This document shows, in pieces, positions 29,268-36,097 of a DNA stretch of 64,000 nucleotides; position 1 is the first letter of the stretch, and each line of letters starts with the position of its first letter. The translations under genes were made by a program, and so were the position numbers. Under the pieces are notes generated by a model. It was not told the origin of the DNA. It saw only the letters and a program-made list of their open reading frames with translations, and searched no databases. This DNA is from an uncultured virus (IMG/VR IMGVR_UViG_3300025603_000008) (Duplodnaviria > Heunggongvirae > Uroviricota > Caudoviricetes), in IMG/VR virus record IMGVR_UViG_3300025603_000008. The stretch is one strand, 5' to 3'.

Positions 29268-30209
29268 ATGTCTTCAAAAAAAGATAAAGTCAGACACATA
29301 GCTGAGGCATTTACATACTACTTCATAGAAAACTGTTGGGAATACTTTGAAGAAGGCGAAATGAGTCACTTGATGTCAAAAGTAGATATTGAGAGGTTGA
29401 GTGATAAAACTATTTGTGATTGCTCTTATGTTCGAGACAAAGTTCTCTGGAATAGTATGCCTGTACGAAAATTAGTTCGCTGTGTGGTCAGGCTAATTGA
29501 CAATCAGGAAACAGAGTTTATTGAAAGCCACATTAAGCTAAAAGAAAGAGGGCTTAGAGTTGGCGATGTTATGCACATCTTAAAACGAAGGCCAGATTTA
29601 CTAAGCTTTTTAGGGATTCAGATATCTAGCATCAATCAAGAAGAAGCCCACTCCTTACTGCTTATGGGACTTAAGTATTTTTTGGATAAAATAGACATTC
29701 ACAAATACAACTTCTCTTACATCCAAGGGTTTCAGATTGCAAAGGCATATGGGTTTCAAAAAAAAGTAGTGATGAGTGTTCCGTATCAGAAGTTCAACAA
29801 TCTTCAAATAGGAGAGCTGCTTGCAGCAACGGGAGAGGTGTTTATACACCTAGTGAGTTTATCAGCGCTTAAAACAACGGACTGGAGGTTTATATTAGAG
29901 AGTCAACCGCAGATGTATGAACACATGGACCCAGTTATATTTTTAGATGCGGACGTGTACGAGTTAGTGAAGCTTATGGCAAACTTTGACTATGAAGAAC
30001 TACATTTGGCAATGAGAGCGAGAATAAAGGAATTAACTCCATACGGAATAGAATTGCTGTTAATACATTATTTAAAAAACTACAAAGCCCTTGTGGACCT
30101 GTCTCAATTAGATGAAAACAACGTAGTCAAGATTCAGGAGCATCATCCTCATTTCGAGCTTCCTCCACATATATCAGCCATTCCCTCCAACAGCCAGCAC
30201 TGTGATTAG
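29268..30209 (+). CDS. Hypothetical helical protein
   Basis: 313 aa ORF. Confidence 0.7.
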   Translation: MSSKKDKVRHIAEAFTYYFIENCWEYFEEGEMSHLMSKVDIERLSDKTICDCSYVRDKVLWNSMPVRKLVRCVVRLIDNQETEFIESHIKLKERGLRVGDVMHILKRRPDLLSFLGIQISSINQEEAHSLLLMGLKYFLDKIDIHKYNFSYIQGFQIAKAYGFQKKVVMSVPYQKFNNLQIGELLAATGEVFIHLVSLSALKTTDWRFILESQPQMYEHMDPVIFLDADVYELVKLMANFDYEELHLAMRARIKELTPYGIELLLIHYLKNYKALVDLSQLDENNVVKIQEHHPHFELPPHISAIPSNSQHCD

Positions 30210-32256: not shown

Positions 32257-32284
32257 AGGGTGATAAAATCAATTATATCATAAT

Positions 32285-32560
32285 ATGGAAATACGAAAAT
32301 TTATAGCAACAACTATACGTGAATATTTGAATGAAAAATCACAATATAAGTTAGATGGTGATGATAAAATTGGGTATATTGAATATTATTATGACGGTGG
32401 TCAATTTTCAGAATATTTACCAAATCTCGAAAAAGAGTTTTATTTGGCGATGATTAGTGTTGATGGAGAATTTAGAGGGAATGACTATTCAACACAAATG
32501 ATAAATTACATAAAAAATTTCGCTAAGGAAAAAGGTGCTATGTTTTATGAAACTAAATAG
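32285..32560 (+). pseudogene. Truncated GNAT acetyltransferase with N-terminal packaging-like motif
   Basis: MEIRKFIATTIREYLNE; YLAMISVDGEFRGNDYS..I..FAKEKG, then abrupt end at a TGCTA junction. Confidence 0.6.
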
Positions 32561-32601
32561 TGTGTGAGTAAAATAAAACAAGAAAAAATAAAACAAGAAA
32601 A

Positions 32602-32907
32602 ATGAAAACAGGTAAGATTATTTTAGGTGACATAATATGTCAAATAAGTTTTGAAAAAAACCCTTCAATTTACTTAGAAGAAAAAACAAATGAAGATGGT
32701 TCAAAATCTTTAACTGGTTATCAAAAATGGAATCCATTCAAAATTAATTTCACATCTAAATATGGTTATGATTTAGTAAGTGGAAAATATGATTCAATTT
32801 TTGTTGTTCCAAGTAACGAAACAAATGTGTGGAAATTATTTAATTGTGTTGTTAATTTAGAAAAAAATGAAATTGCTTTTGAAAGTGGTGTGTTATATCA
32901 AGAGTAG
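32602..32907 (+). CDS. Cassette ORF, hypothetical protein
   Basis: 101 aa ORF followed by attC-like site A. Confidence 0.65.
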   Translation: MKTGKIILGDIICQISFEKNPSIYLEEKTNEDGSKSLTGYQKWNPFKINFTSKYGYDLVSGKYDSIFVVPSNETNVWKLFNCVVNLEKNEIAFESGVLYQE

Positions 32908-32965
32908 TGAAATTTTTAAAAGGTTTTTACACAGAACTTAATACGAAGCAGAAACGTAGCATTGC

Positions 32966-33024
32966 ATATAACGGTTTGTATAAGGTGCGTAGCTTTTCGC
33001 TATGCAATTTACACAGTGTTAACT
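32966..33024 (+). repeat. attC-like site A (59 bp)
   Basis: ATATAAC-ggtt-TGTATAAggTGCGTAGC-ttttc-GCTATGCAaTTTACACA-gt-GTTAACT. Confidence 0.75.
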
Positions 33025-33122
33025 ACTGGCGGATTAATGACCCACCAACGCTAGTACGAAGCACGAAGCACGAAGCACTAAAAAATAAAAAGAAGGGTGG
33101 GTAAAAATAAATTAATAATAAG

Positions 33123-33626
33123 ATGAAAGAAGATGTTAAGTCGGGCAAAAATGCCCCCGAAAAAACAGATGCTCATCCACAAGTGGAAAGAGTAGAAACA
33201 AATGAAGAATACAACCAAGAATTAAAAAGAAGGTTGAGTGAGAAAAACAATTCAACATTGATTAAGTACGAAGAACTTATTGATATTGCTCCTGAGTTTG
33301 CCTTATGGTTAAAAGAACTTGTGCGATATGGAAATGTTGACTCGCAAGCATTAATTTTCCTTGACACTAAAGAGGCAGGAAAAAACAAGTTTATTTGCAG
33401 ATTACATACAAACGACCACTATTACTCAATTTCTGGATATAAACCAACAGATAAAAGTAGTGGATACCTAGGCTGTATTGCATCAACTAGAAAAAACAGA
33501 GTTGGTGAAGACTGGAATAGAGGTAGTGATTTACCTGACGGTAAATACAGTAAAAAAACATTTGATGCAATTGTTAGAAGAATTGTAGCATATGAACTAA
33601 AAACACTCCAATTGTGGAGAACCTAA
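33123..33626 (+). CDS. Cassette ORF, hypothetical protein
   Basis: 167 aa; GYLGCIASTRK..GEDWNRGSDLPDG. Confidence 0.7.
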   Translation: MKEDVKSGKNAPEKTDAHPQVERVETNEEYNQELKRRLSEKNNSTLIKYEELIDIAPEFALWLKELVRYGNVDSQALIFLDTKEAGKNKFICRLHTNDHYYSISGYKPTDKSSGYLGCIASTRKNRVGEDWNRGSDLPDGKYSKKTFDAIVRRIVAYELKTLQLWRT

Positions 33627-33712
33627 TTGGTTGGTAAAACCAAAAGCGGGTGGCTTTTATTTTTTCTTCTGATTACGCAGAAAATTAAATACGTGCCACT
33701 ACACCCGCTTGT

Positions 33713-33771
33713 AGTTAGCGTTTTGGCTATGATACGTTGCTTTTCGCAATGGATTATAGGTAGTATTAGGC
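33713..33771 (+). repeat. Degenerate attC-like site B (59 bp)
   Basis: AGTTAGC..CTATGATacGTTGC-ttttc-GCAATggATTATAG..ATTAGGC; core AAC/GTT changed to AGC/ATT. Confidence 0.6.
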
Positions 33772-33795
33772 TTAGTACGGATTTAAATTACAAAT

Positions 33796-34020
33796 ATGGG
33801 AAAATCATGTAAGTGTACTCTTTGTGTAAATTATGAGTTTTATAAGTGGGCAGTTGTAATGGAGTGTAAATGTGGATGCCATACAGGTGATGGCATGACA
33901 GGACATGATGGATTATGTTGTTCGTTGCCGAATGGATTAAAGAAAAATAACCCACACAAAAACCTAAAAGAATCTAAGTATTACAAAGAAATATTAGATA
34001 AATGGGAAAACGAGGGCTAG
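33796..34020 (+). CDS. Cassette ORF, small Cys-rich protein
   Basis: 74 aa; CKCTLC, CKCGCH, CC. Confidence 0.6.
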   Translation: MGKSCKCTLCVNYEFYKWAVVMECKCGCHTGDGMTGHDGLCCSLPNGLKKNNPHKNLKESKYYKEILDKWENEG

Positions 34021-34026
34021 TATTAC

Positions 34027-34043
34027 ACACAGCGGAATGTATA
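34027..34043 (+). repeat. Left-half remnant of attC-like site C
   Basis: ACACAGC-ggaa-TGTATA resembles site G (ACACAAC-aat-TGTATA); right arm absent. Confidence 0.4.
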
Positions 34044-34057
34044 TATAAAGAAATGTT

Positions 34058-34498
34058 ATGAGTAAAGAAATGAGAGAACAAATAAATAAGGTTAAGAACT
34101 TTGGTAAGTTCTTGAATGAGAATAAATATTATGATGAAGAAAGTGACGAATATTATGATTTATTAAAGATTAACATAAATGAATTAATATTGAGTAAAAG
34201 AAGTTTAATGGGGGTTTTTAATAATTTTATTGATGGTAAAAAATCACATAGTAATAAAGAACCTTTAAATGTTTGGAGAACTGATAATAATTTATTGTTT
34301 TTAGTTGATGGTTATCATAGAGTTTTTGATTCATTATTAAATAGTACTTTAATTAATGATGTTATTGTGGTTGGTGAAGGTTATACTGATTATTATTCTG
34401 AACCATCTAATGGTAATGTTTTTAAAATTGATACTAATTTAGAATTTAATGGTTTGGAAAATATTATAGAAAAAGGTTATTTGGAATCACTAATGTAA
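34058..34498 (+). CDS. Cassette ORF: ParB/Srx-like protein with N-terminal packaging-like motif
   Basis: MSKEMREQINKVKNFGKFLNE; EPLNVWR..LVDGYHRV. Confidence 0.7.
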   Translation: MSKEMREQINKVKNFGKFLNENKYYDEESDEYYDLLKININELILSKRSLMGVFNNFIDGKKSHSNKEPLNVWRTDNNLLFLVDGYHRVFDSLLNSTLINDVIVVGEGYTDYYSEPSNGNVFKIDTNLEFNGLENIIEKGYLESLM

Positions 34499-34505
34499 CA
34501 CTTAC

Positions 34506-34599
34506 ACATAACGGCTGGGTGTATGAGAAGGTTTGCTTAGATAAACTATCAAATTACCACAAATGCTGATAGCAAACTTTCTTATACACCTTGTTATGC
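34506..34599 (+). repeat. attC-like site D (94 bp)
   Basis: ACATAAC..GGTGTATGAGAAGGTTTGCT..AGCAAACTTTCTTATACACC-tt-GTTATGC. Confidence 0.8.
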
Positions 34600-34707
34600 T
34601 CTCGTGCCGATTTATTAACTGATAATGTTGATTTGAAACACGAAAGAAAAATAAAAAGAATTTTAGAGTGGAGTTTTAAAAACCGAATATTTATATATAA
34701 AGAAACT

Positions 34708-35196
34708 ATGAGTGAAGATATGCGTAAAATAATTGATAAAGTTAAGAACTTTAAGCAGTTTGTGAATGAAAATCACACAATAAATGAAAATGATATTGAA
34801 CAATGGATGAGTGGTGAATGTATTCCATTTTGTGTTGCGTTGAATGAAATATTTCCACAATATCAAATAGCGGTAATTAACGATGAATTTGAAGATGTTG
34901 ATGAAGATGCTGAATATAATTTCAATTTTGTTCATGCCTTTTGCTATCATCCAAATAACCATAATATTATAATTGATGCAAGAGGTGTTAGAAAACTTAA
35001 AGATTTATATGAAGATTTTTATGATATAAATCCAGTTATTGATTGGGACATAACAAACTCTAAATATTTGATAGATAATTATGCAGGTAAAGAGTTTGCA
35101 TCTGAAGAAAGTTTTGAATATGATATTAACGAATACCAATCAGCAAAAGATTATATAAGTAAAAATATTCAAAAATATAGTATTAATTTGAAATAA
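34708..35196 (+). CDS. Cassette ORF: Cys-His-Asp (papain/transglutaminase-like) protein with packaging-like motif
   Basis: MSEDMRKIIDKVKNFKQFVNE; GECIPFC..VHAFCY..IIDARG; TATTTAT at 34688. Confidence 0.65.
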   Translation: MSEDMRKIIDKVKNFKQFVNENHTINENDIEQWMSGECIPFCVALNEIFPQYQIAVINDEFEDVDEDAEYNFNFVHAFCYHPNNHNIIIDARGVRKLKDLYEDFYDINPVIDWDITNSKYLIDNYAGKEFASEESFEYDINEYQSAKDYISKNIQKYSINLK

Positions 35197-35281
35197 TTTT
35201 ATTATCTTTGTTTTGCGTTGGCGAAATTCTTTTTGTTTTTCATTACAAATGTTAAATCGAAGAACTGAACTAAGGCATGGA

Positions 35282-35344
35282 GCATAACGTTTAGTATAAG
35301 ATTAAGCGATAGCGACCGTAGGTTAATTTTATACATTGTTACCT
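35282..35344 (+). repeat. attC-like site E (63 bp)
   Basis: GCATAAC-gttta-GTATAAGATTAA..TTAATTTTATAC-att-GTTACCT. Confidence 0.8.
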
Positions 35345-35379
35345 ACTGTGGCGATTTTATAAACTAAAAACTTTGATAA

Positions 35380-35631
35380 ATGACTGAAATAAAAAATAAA
35401 TACGAGCCAAATGGAACTGAAGAAGAAGAAGTAAAGCTTGGAATATTACATAATGTAAATGGCTATTATGTAAGTAATGAAGGAACTAAACAAAAACCAA
35501 ACTATCACGTATGGGTTCCAAGCGTTACGCACGCTGATTGTGATAGTGCCTATGATGATATAACACTTGCTGTTTGTAGATGCGATTACTTGGCGAAACA
35601 TAAGGTTAAACTAAAGTATCAGCCATTGTAG
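35380..35631 (+). CDS. Cassette ORF, hypothetical protein
   Basis: 83 aa; its TAG stop overlaps the start of site F. Confidence 0.65.
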   Translation: MTEIKNKYEPNGTEEEEVKLGILHNVNGYYVSNEGTKQKPNYHVWVPSVTHADCDSAYDDITLAVCRCDYLAKHKVKLKYQPL

Positions 35632-35771
35632 GTAACGGTAAGTATAAAAACAGTACGACAATGACAGTACGACAATGACAGAAATAGATAATATAAAAGA
35701 CCAACACCAAAGATTAGAAATAGGTAGTGAAGAGGCACTAGAGCGAGTATTGTATTTATACAATGTTGGGC
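35630..35771 (+). repeat. attC-like site F (142 bp; contains start of next ORF and a 14-bp tandem duplication)
   Basis: AGGTAAC-ggtaa-GTATAAAAACAGTAC..GTATTGTATTTATAC-aat-GTTGGGC. Confidence 0.7.
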
Positions 35772-35962
35772 GTAGTTTTATTCACGAACTTATTAAAAAG
35801 GAAGAAACCCTTAAAGCTAAATTGAGCGAAAACTTAGACTTGTATAAGAGCAAGAACCTTATGAATGATTACGACAAAACATTTAGCCAATGGAACAAGT
35901 GCAATTTAGTTTTATGGGATTTAAAAGATATACTTTGTAGAATGGGCGAAGACTTAGATTAA
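35675..35962 (+). CDS. Cassette ORF, hypothetical protein (starts inside site F)
   Basis: 95 aa; codons LYNVGRS span the GTT crossover point. Confidence 0.6.
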   Translation: MTEIDNIKDQHQRLEIGSEEALERVLYLYNVGRSFIHELIKKEETLKAKLSENLDLYKSKNLMNDYDKTFSQWNKCNLVLWDLKDILCRMGEDLD

Positions 35963-35967
35963 ATTAC

Positions 35968-36017
35968 ACACAACAATTGTATATGGTTAGTGGCTTTTTA
36001 GCCATTAATTATATACA
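35968..36017 (+). repeat. Terminal attC-like site G lacking the final GTT box
   Basis: ACACAAC-aat-TGTATATGGTTAGTGGC-ttttta-GCCATTAATTATATACA. Confidence 0.65.
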
Positions 36018-36097
36018 GCGAGCTGGTTTTGTTTTATTTTTCAAGGGATGGCGGCGTATTATCCTGCATTCTTTCGGGGTCAATTTTATAATCTAAT

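Follow-up and report, generated by a model that had tools for sequence, protein, structure and literature searches.

Integrons are usually viewed as gene-capture systems that need an IntI-specific domain, are rare in Bacteroidota and are found in phages as mere stray fragments. In the integration of CTX phage by XerCD, a Xer enzyme without the IntI insertion recombines a hairpin formed by one DNA strand. T4-type phages reportedly harbor a further kind of unit, the promoter early stem-loop (PeSL) cassettes, which Arbiol and co-workers are said to have described in 2010 and in which repeats composed of an early promoter of the sigma-70 type and a terminator stem-loop recombine by homology. Here, we analyze a 64,000-nucleotide stretch of DNA (the window) of an uncultured virus of the Caudoviricetes (IMG/VR record IMGVR_UViG_3300025603_000008), in which short open reading frames (ORFs) and seven hairpin sites, A−G, form an island at 32.26−36.02 kb. 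It corresponds to bases 9453−73452 of the record, read on the reverse strand; the record comprises 109,119 bp and is estimated to be 31% complete.

The IntegronFinder papers report almost no integrons of Bacteroidetes: the accessible text of the IntegronFinder 2.0 preprint mentions In0 elements only and one complete integron, in Salinibacter. Recombinases that are found near attC sites but lack the IntI C-terminal signature are treated as not being IntI in the accessible parts of Cury et al. 2016, and in an integron-like subgroup the IntI insertion is incompletely conserved (Smyshlyaev et al. 2021). For phages, the accessible text of Qi et al. 2023 (PMC9892861) reports 17 integrase-less attC clusters in 10,705 genomes, identified using IntegronFinder and HattCI; among the sites, P12002L_attC1 was predicted with HattCI and attC2 with HattCI and INFERNAL. 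In the literature searched, which did not extend to subscription journals, we found no account of the site family described below, nor of cassettes served by a Xer-like enzyme, be it in Bacteroidota or in phages of Bacteroidota. Clusters of attC sites in phages have already been published, while the branch with phage-encoded recombinases is apparently undescribed.

The data presented below make it likely that the island is an integrase-less cassette array of an integron-like site-specific recombination system, which is common to Bacteroidota chromosomes and flavobacterial phages. Sites with covarying stems, complementary arms at the ends of units, breakpoints in other phages as well as linkage and fixed polarity to a recombinase gene are observed. 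A preliminary description of the window had proposed an integron-like cassette array in a large phage. That interpretation is retained, and its assignment of the strand and of the unit boundaries is replaced.

A Site Family in Phages and Bacteroidota

A degenerate pattern derived from site E (35273−35353, + strand; C of AAC at 35288, GTT at 35338) was searched in viral and genome collections, yielding at least 121 viral loci and at least 122 genome loci. Among the matches listed, 69 of the 80 titled genome loci belong to Bacteroidota, and the few others resemble chance matches. The aligned sites share a layout in which TAAC is separated by 5 nt from GTATA; this is followed by a stem, whose loop is, for instance, CGTTTTAATG, by TATACA and, 2 nt further on, by GTT. 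Compensatory changes are seen in six inner base pairs (RNAalifold, 104 sites).

A covariance model, R1, was built from the sites of other phages with no window sequence included. When applied to the 109-kb record, this model identifies site E (35282−35343, 52.6 bits), site A (32966−33023, 36.8 bits, E-value 4e-6) and site F (35630−35770, 25 bits), and it matches site B partially (10.5 bits). Site A (32957−33033, + strand) is composed of a flanking arm ending in TAAC (C at 32972), a hairpin core, GTT at 33018 and the following arm. Site F (35621−35780, + strand; C of AAC at 35636, GTT at 35765) is 142 nt long and encloses the start codon of ORF8. R1 gave no other match in the record, and the site architecture occurs nowhere else in it. 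In the collected loci, R1 yields 134 matches in 78 viral loci, many of them co-oriented (seven in L025), and 103 matches in 72 bacterial loci, often in co-oriented rows. The possibility that the sites are peculiar to this phage is ruled out by this very large family in Bacteroidota and their phages. The suggestion that the sites are unlike canonical attC was borne out, in that they constitute a distinct sequence family.

Several cultured phages carry sites of the family, namely Winogradskyella phage Peternella_1, one site of which is 93% identical to site E, Cellulophaga phages phi13:2 and phi19:3, and Polaribacter phage P12002L. Because these hosts are flavobacteria, the host of the present phage is most likely a flavobacterium as well. 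In P12002L (L249, NC_028924), five co-oriented R1 sites on the gene strand, at 30006−38939, flank the genes of three DNA methyltransferases as well as a Mom-like gene. The oligonucleotide P12002L_attC1 of Qi et al. belongs to the same family as the sites of the window (NC_028924 30006−30059, 25.3 bits with R1). The core of site G matches sites in loci L010 and L080. The ORFs beside bacterial sites display very diverse accessory functions.

Complementarity of Unit Ends

The sites of the window are 58−142 nt long and display an attC-type architecture, with outer AAC/GTT boxes, inner boxes, an unpaired spacer, a variable loop and an imperfect hairpin of variable length. Seven hairpin sites are found where the preliminary description had placed them, although complete AAC and GTT ends are not present in all. 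Site B (33704−33778, + strand) has AGC for AAC (C at 33719) and GTA for GTT (33763); site C (34018−34057, + strand) is a left half-site, with an arm, AGC (C at 34033), GGAAT and GTATAT, which continues into the leader of ORF5; site G (35959−36016, + strand) has an arm, AAC (C at 35974) and a hairpin core without the GTT end. Site D (34497−34608, + strand; C of AAC at 34512, GTT at 34593) is a long hairpin. Folding of sites A, B, D, E and G gives imperfect hairpins of −9.4 to −20.6 kcal/mol on the + strand (A −9.6, B −9.4, D −20.6, G −9.7 kcal/mol), and the − strand is always less stable.

Complementarity between arms was determined by comparing the 16 nt after each GTT with the 16 nt before each AAC, anchored at the boxes, and counting Watson−Crick matches over seven columns. 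The arm after the GTT pairs with that of the next site at 12/16 (A to B), 10/16 (D to E), 13/16 (E to F) and 12/16 (F to G) positions, each the highest value of its row, i.e., the next-site partner is best in all four testable rows, while pairing within the same site amounts to 7, 9, 8 and 5 for A, D, E and F, respectively. The claim that the start of each unit is complementary to its end was thus supported for four units; it failed for the unit from B to C. A two-base mismatch, TG opposite TT, recurs past a 9-bp box both in the window and in viral loci. When circular junctions were folded in silico, the predicted partner arm ranked first of seven for cores A, D and E, and the junctions fold at −17.9 vs −9.0 (A), −28.9 vs −19.5 (D) and −16.6 vs −6.6 (E) kcal/mol, which corresponds to a gain of 9−10 kcal/mol. 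The fold check proposed in the preliminary description is therefore favorable for these three cores and unfavorable for cores B and F.

The complementarity extends to the family. In viral loci, at least 9 of 13 positions pair in 18/45 adjacent pairs, compared to 253/19746 random and 4/168 same-site pairs. For a 6-nt box, at least five of the six positions are paired in 10/18 bacterial, 19/45 viral and 5/10 integrase-locus adjacent pairs, the random value being 2.5−4%.

Inverted-repeat ends combined with one hairpin per unit, as well as GTAG-like words in several arms, could also be taken to indicate that the units are small transposon-like elements (miniature inverted-repeat transposable elements, IS200/IS605-like elements or repetitive extragenic palindromes with their associated transposase, REP/RAYT-like), moved by an HUH or other transposase. 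We consider this explanation highly improbable. The units abut without target duplications, with a single shared box at each junction, and the arms vary between units with compensating changes instead of being conserved as a transposase would need. Furthermore, Pfam scans of the 127 ORFs of the record revealed no HUH/Y1 or other transposase, and the enzyme that is linked to the sites is a tyrosine recombinase.

Crossover Point and Unit Boundaries

The boundaries of the integron-like units are indicated by comparison of two nearly identical phage contigs, L044 and L080, which have flanks of 99−100% identity surrounding a swapped block of 4889 bp in one and 371 bp in the other. At the left breakpoint, identity stops directly after ...CCTAACG, where the hairpin cores differ already, and at the right breakpoint it resumes directly after TAAC. 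High-identity matches between loci (high-scoring segment pairs) have 75 internal ends, of which 22 lie within 12 nt of an AAC landmark and 6 near a GTT. These comparisons place strand exchange at the TAAC end on the coding (+) strand, i.e., at G|TT on the opposite strand. The bottom strand of a classical attC site is cleaved in its 5′ AAC, which is the same geometry as that of the 5′ TAAC on the + strand. Recombination at G/TT of the + strand, as originally suggested, is not in agreement with the breakpoints, and units starting at GTT on that strand are ruled out by the L044/L080 comparison and the breakpoint tally. With boundaries at TAAC, the unit consists of the core, the GTT arm, the ORF and the arm ending in TAA, which means that each hairpin core moves with its downstream ORF. 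This correction leaves the observed complementarity between start and end untouched.

Alternatively, the hairpins could be elements acting at the level of the transcript (terminators, processing or stabilizing hairpins, or PeSL-like elements), with shuffling by homologous recombination between repeats. Exchange driven by homology does exist in these phages: a 1.9-kb insertion that distinguishes L044 (at about 1051−1064) from L080 has directly repeated copies of a 14-nt leader sequence at its edges and no hairpin site there, which points to a second, homology-based mode of gene gain at work in phages of this type. Homologous recombination, however, leaves unexplained the unit-specific complementary arms, the focusing of breakpoints on TAAC with differing cores, and the fixed polarity of the sites relative to a tyrosine recombinase gene, observed in 34 of 34 cases (see below). 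Together with the observations on strands discussed in the following section, these points render this alternative unlikely.

Strand Asymmetry and Direction of the ORFs

In viral loci, the neighboring ORFs are on the strand of the site (131/142 upstream, 106/115 downstream), whereas in bacterial loci they are on the opposite strand (76/97 upstream, 123/132 downstream). The sites themselves display the same asymmetry in both groups. The + strand of the site is the more stable one in 120/129 bacterial and 83/103 viral sites, and G·T pairs on the + and − strands number 195 vs 14 in bacterial and 118 vs 7 in viral sites. Because this asymmetry is the same despite the opposite strands of the ORFs, it is a property of the DNA site, not of a transcript.

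That the phage sites are intergenic and on the coding strand, where the folds use G·T wobbles that are tolerable in RNA, would fit with a role of the hairpins in transcripts. In bacteria, however, the same strand asymmetry is antisense to the ORFs. In addition, no site scores as a terminator (none of the four terminator-like sequences found in a terminator scan coincides with sites A−G), and promoter-like matches are not enriched (23 compared to 27.7 expected).

With the integron-like arrangement, the bacterial cassettes are organized canonically, the ORF being followed by the site and the crossover lying at the far end, while the phage cassette ORFs are antisense to this canonical direction. 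Accordingly, the cassette ORFs of the window do not run in the direction of the attC top strand; they are on the strand with a 5′ crossover box, which by analogy is the bottom strand.

The Partner Recombinase

A 402-residue protein, P0001, is encoded adjacent to a three-site array in a Polaribacter genome. It contains domains PF13495 and PF00589 and scores 237.5 bits against the XerA/integron-integrase model NF040815 (cutoff 220), and 213.9 bits against the integron-integrase model TIGR02249, i.e., below the cutoff of 265. The protein aligns unbroken to XerA-type structures, and it has an additional N-terminal region of about 95 residues. When it is aligned with VchIntIA, only residues 11−206 and 247−317 are covered; about 40 residues of VchIntIA have no counterpart, which shows that the IntI-specific insertion is missing in the array-linked recombinase. 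The preliminary description had recommended looking for a tyrosine recombinase with an IntI-like insertion; because the linked enzyme lacks the insertion, such a search would have overlooked it. The expectation that the recombinase is not close to the array was confirmed, and among relatives, recombinases are present both in phages and in likely hosts.

Homologs of P0001 (38−54% identity) are found within 6 kb of a site in 11 of the at least 122 bacterial loci, 80 of which have long flanks. A profile constructed from an alignment of six array-linked enzymes identified 242 relatives in viral contigs, of which 80 were kept for analysis. R1 matches are present at 22 of these 80 loci, and all 34 matches are on the strand of the integrase gene, 33 of them upstream of it. 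The phage enzymes are short (266−286 residues) and encoded directly downstream of the arrays, in a replication and recombination context that includes Erf, DnaB, RNA ligase, homing endonucleases and methyltransferase cassettes. A docking motif, YAAC-N-A-N2−4-WTATAT (TAAC-TAnnATATAT), is located at most 120 nt upstream of the integrase start in 17/21 loci. Three complete phage genomes with sites are devoid of any tyrosine recombinase, and a single weak match is found in Cellulophaga phage phi13:2; arrays that are served in trans therefore seem to be common.

In one integrase-bearing phage contig (L298), the ORFs at 81−1559 and 8750−9127 match consecutive parts (profile positions 65−542 and 554−674) of the nuclease family phrog_13933. 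The two halves are about 7 kb apart, with a cassette array and integrase between them, and so a whole element may have been inserted into, or may be splitting, a phage gene.

Collectively, these observations lead us to favor a scenario where phages of flavobacteria, ranging from siphoviruses of 38 kb up to jumbo phages, have an integron-like capture system of their own, with a short Xer-type enzyme devoid of the IntI insertion, a docking motif and hairpin sites that Bacteroidota chromosomes also carry. The inverted cassettes would constitute a separate phage-to-phage pool of accessory and counter-defense genes, and the array in the window would be a client served in trans.

State of the Array

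Seven co-oriented sites inside 3.1 kb, in 109 kb that harbor no integrase, fit the definition of a cluster of attC sites lacking integron-integrases (CALIN), which asks for two or more neighboring, co-oriented attC sites away from any integrase. Several results weigh against the interpretation of the array as a set of integron-like cassettes. The record contains no tyrosine recombinase and no match to PF00589, and the docking motif is absent from the window as well as from the whole record. Sites B, C and G are degenerate, sites D and G are not recognized by R1, the arms from B to C do not pair (3 matches of 16), and for the circular junctions of cores B and F (B to C and F to G) the predicted partner does not give the best fold. 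The evidence for the crossover point is derived from comparisons in other phages. The linked enzyme lacks the insertion with which classical integron integrases read extrahelical bases, and recognition of a single strand is therefore proposed by analogy. Recombination with IntI1 was not verified for P12002L_attC1, the single family member with a published test, whereas it was for the other sites in the accessible text of Qi et al. 2023 (PMC9892861). In contigs of four sequencing runs the joints are weak (sides of 21−29 nt), with no firm excision junction. Regarding movement of the cassettes of this particular array, the eight proteins gave no tblastn matches in the other collected loci.

The sequencing runs that hold the array are labeled salt-lake metagenomes, with no RNA run among those listed. 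One of these runs contains a contig that has the site B core in common with the array (from position 33722) but a different upstream sequence, and other contigs of array-holding metagenomes contain G-like cores with full ends. When relatives of the phage were sought via the protein with the UVR domain that is encoded next to the array, one distant locus was found, and none via the MazG-like protein on the other side.

The array could also be a dead relic, with cassettes that were assembled elsewhere, in another phage or by a host enzyme, and are now fixed, without ongoing exchange. The decay of sites B, C and G, a record that extends over 109 kb without integrase or docking motif, and the fact that 18 of the 24 listed runs contain 97% or more of the words sampled from the array are in agreement with such a scenario. 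Yet, cores A, D and E retain strong arm pairing, only about 31% of the genome is at hand, contigs from the same metagenomes branch at sites, and B-like and G-like cores are found in other contexts. We regard a relic as possible, though clearly less probable than not. The array is part-decayed (B, C and G) and has neither an integrase nor a docking motif; exchange within this phage is putative.

Organization of the Array and Its Surroundings

The array island has a GC content of 0.27−0.35, compared to 0.35−0.44 in the flanks, and its eight ORFs, all on the + strand, span 32285−35962. The ORF map and GC profile thus agree with the earlier view of eight co-directional ORFs in an AT-rich island. 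On one side the island is adjoined by the gene of a UVR-motif protein (31165−32256) and on the other by a MazG-like gene (36122−36703).

ORF1 (32285−32560, + strand, 91 residues) contains a weak GNAT acetyltransferase fragment (Pfam PF00583, E-value 9e-5). Together with ORF2 (32602−32907, + strand, 101 residues), for which the family scans gave no family, it constitutes one unit, located farthest from the side where an integrase would be expected and lacking its own hairpin core. A 17-nt A-rich sequence is present twice before ORF2 (32568−32601), and metagenome contigs branch there. Site A is followed by a short tandem repeat, three copies of ACGAAGC (33056−33078), and by ORF3 (33123−33626, + strand, 167 residues), which belongs to no family in the family scans and has no match in a protein-atlas search. 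ORF4 (33796−34020, + strand, 74 residues) is cysteine-rich and also without family.

By its leader and N-terminus, ORF5 (34058−34498, + strand, 146 residues) is a paralog of ORF6 (34708−35196, + strand, 162 residues, or longer if a TTG start at 34591 is used). The common leader (TATATATAAAGAAA) and N-terminal residues (34037−34120 and 34686−34770) give the two the appearance of paralogous cassettes, and the ORF5-type leader and start (34037−34082) recur in L059, another viral locus, where 47 nt are aligned with 94% identity. The search of the protein atlas with ORF6 yielded clusters of viral hypothetical proteins only. ORF7 (35380−35631, + strand, 83 residues) and ORF8 (35675−35962, + strand, 95 residues) belong to phrog_20712 and phrog_31081, respectively, both of unknown function. 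Within site F, CAGTACGACAATGA is present twice (35661−35688). Site G forms the edge of the array on the side where related phages have the docking motif and integrase. An Rfam scan of 30−38 kb gave two sub-threshold chance matches and nothing else.

According to Pfam scans, the array is surrounded by genes typical of large phages, encoding an endolysin, translation factor IF3 and a CCA-adding enzyme, and the record further includes NAD synthesis genes, thymidylate synthase, DHFR, PARG and an ADP-ribosyltransferase. The IF3 gene (5038−5604, − strand) is full-length, with both Pfam domains. The NAD-related cluster (49319−52738, + strand) encodes a nicotinate phosphoribosyltransferase, a thioesterase, a cytidylyltransferase-like protein and NAD synthase, and beyond it are found an HD/AAA kinase and an RlaP-like nucleotidyltransferase. 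Outside the window, a SNF2-family helicase gene (L003, 906−3923, − strand) is interrupted by a LAGLIDADG domain, which is probably an intein or an inserted homing endonuclease.

Proposed Mechanism

In the model that we propose, a unit on the + strand starts at the C of TAAC and, after a spacer of 5 nt, has GTATA and TATAC(A) on either side of a variable stem-loop that covaries. After another 2 nt it continues with GTTA and a variable arm, the ORF and a complementary arm ending in TAA. Upon excision as a circle, the two arms of the unit would pair, thereby closing a long imperfect hairpin on one strand. The folded strand would be the + strand of the window, i.e., the counterpart of the bottom strand of a classical attC site, and a Xer/IntI-like tyrosine recombinase would exchange strands in the 5′ TAAC box. 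In related phages, this role would be filled by the recombinase whose gene comes immediately after the array, past the docking motif TAAC-TAnnATATAT. The arrays of Bacteroidota chromosomes are headed by a longer form of the recombinase, and their ORFs point oppositely relative to the sites. For the present array, we infer that the enzyme is supplied in trans, by the two thirds of the genome that have not been sequenced, by a co-infecting phage or by the host. The cargo consists of small phage accessory genes of unknown function. The use of a folded single strand as substrate and the circular intermediates are likewise suggested by analogy with integrons.

Comparison with Known Systems

The PeSL cassettes are similar in that stem-loop repeats reportedly flank small accessory ORFs of the hyperplastic regions in large phages, with shuffling between phages. 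They differ from the units described here, where the sites are without promoter or terminator signal, have complementary arms specific to each unit and show linkage to a tyrosine recombinase. The CTX/XerCD system illustrates that a Xer-type enzyme without the IntI insertion can act on a single-strand hairpin; in contrast to the present system, it integrates a whole phage at dif and involves no cassette arrays.

The phage attC clusters of Qi et al. 2023 (PMC9892861) are, like the array of the window, integrase-less; they are found in virulent phages, and that of P12002L carries methyltransferase cargo. In the accessible text, the P12002L sites are reported to have divergent directions, whereas R1 identifies five co-oriented sites, and that text mentions neither a family of sites nor a Xer-like partner, and likewise no docking motif and no inverted ORF polarity.

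Rather than stray fragments of integrons, the data point to a large parallel branch with the same cassette logic and a Xer-like enzyme, which is common in Bacteroidota and their phages and in which some phages encode the enzyme. If so, exchange of small accessory genes such as methyltransferases among unrelated marine phages would be explained, a testable instance of hairpin-site recombination without the IntI domain would be at hand, and gene-cassette systems would be undercounted by standard integron finders. The value of the window is that it contains a member of this apparently undescribed integron-like capture branch that includes phage-encoded recombinases.

The closest relation is to classical integrons and CALINs. 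The recombinase described here differs from theirs in that it lacks the insertion of about 40 residues and scores under the integron-integrase cutoff, the sites belong to a distinct sequence family, the phage ORFs are antisense to the canonical direction, and the window has neither an integrase nor a docking site. The likeness includes co-oriented one-gene cassettes between imperfect palindromes with AAC/GTT and inner boxes, a spacer and a variable loop; cassette ends that pair on circularization; one strand that folds better, with exchange in its 5′ AAC box; and, in complete arrays, a tyrosine recombinase gene at one end and a diverse bacterial cargo.

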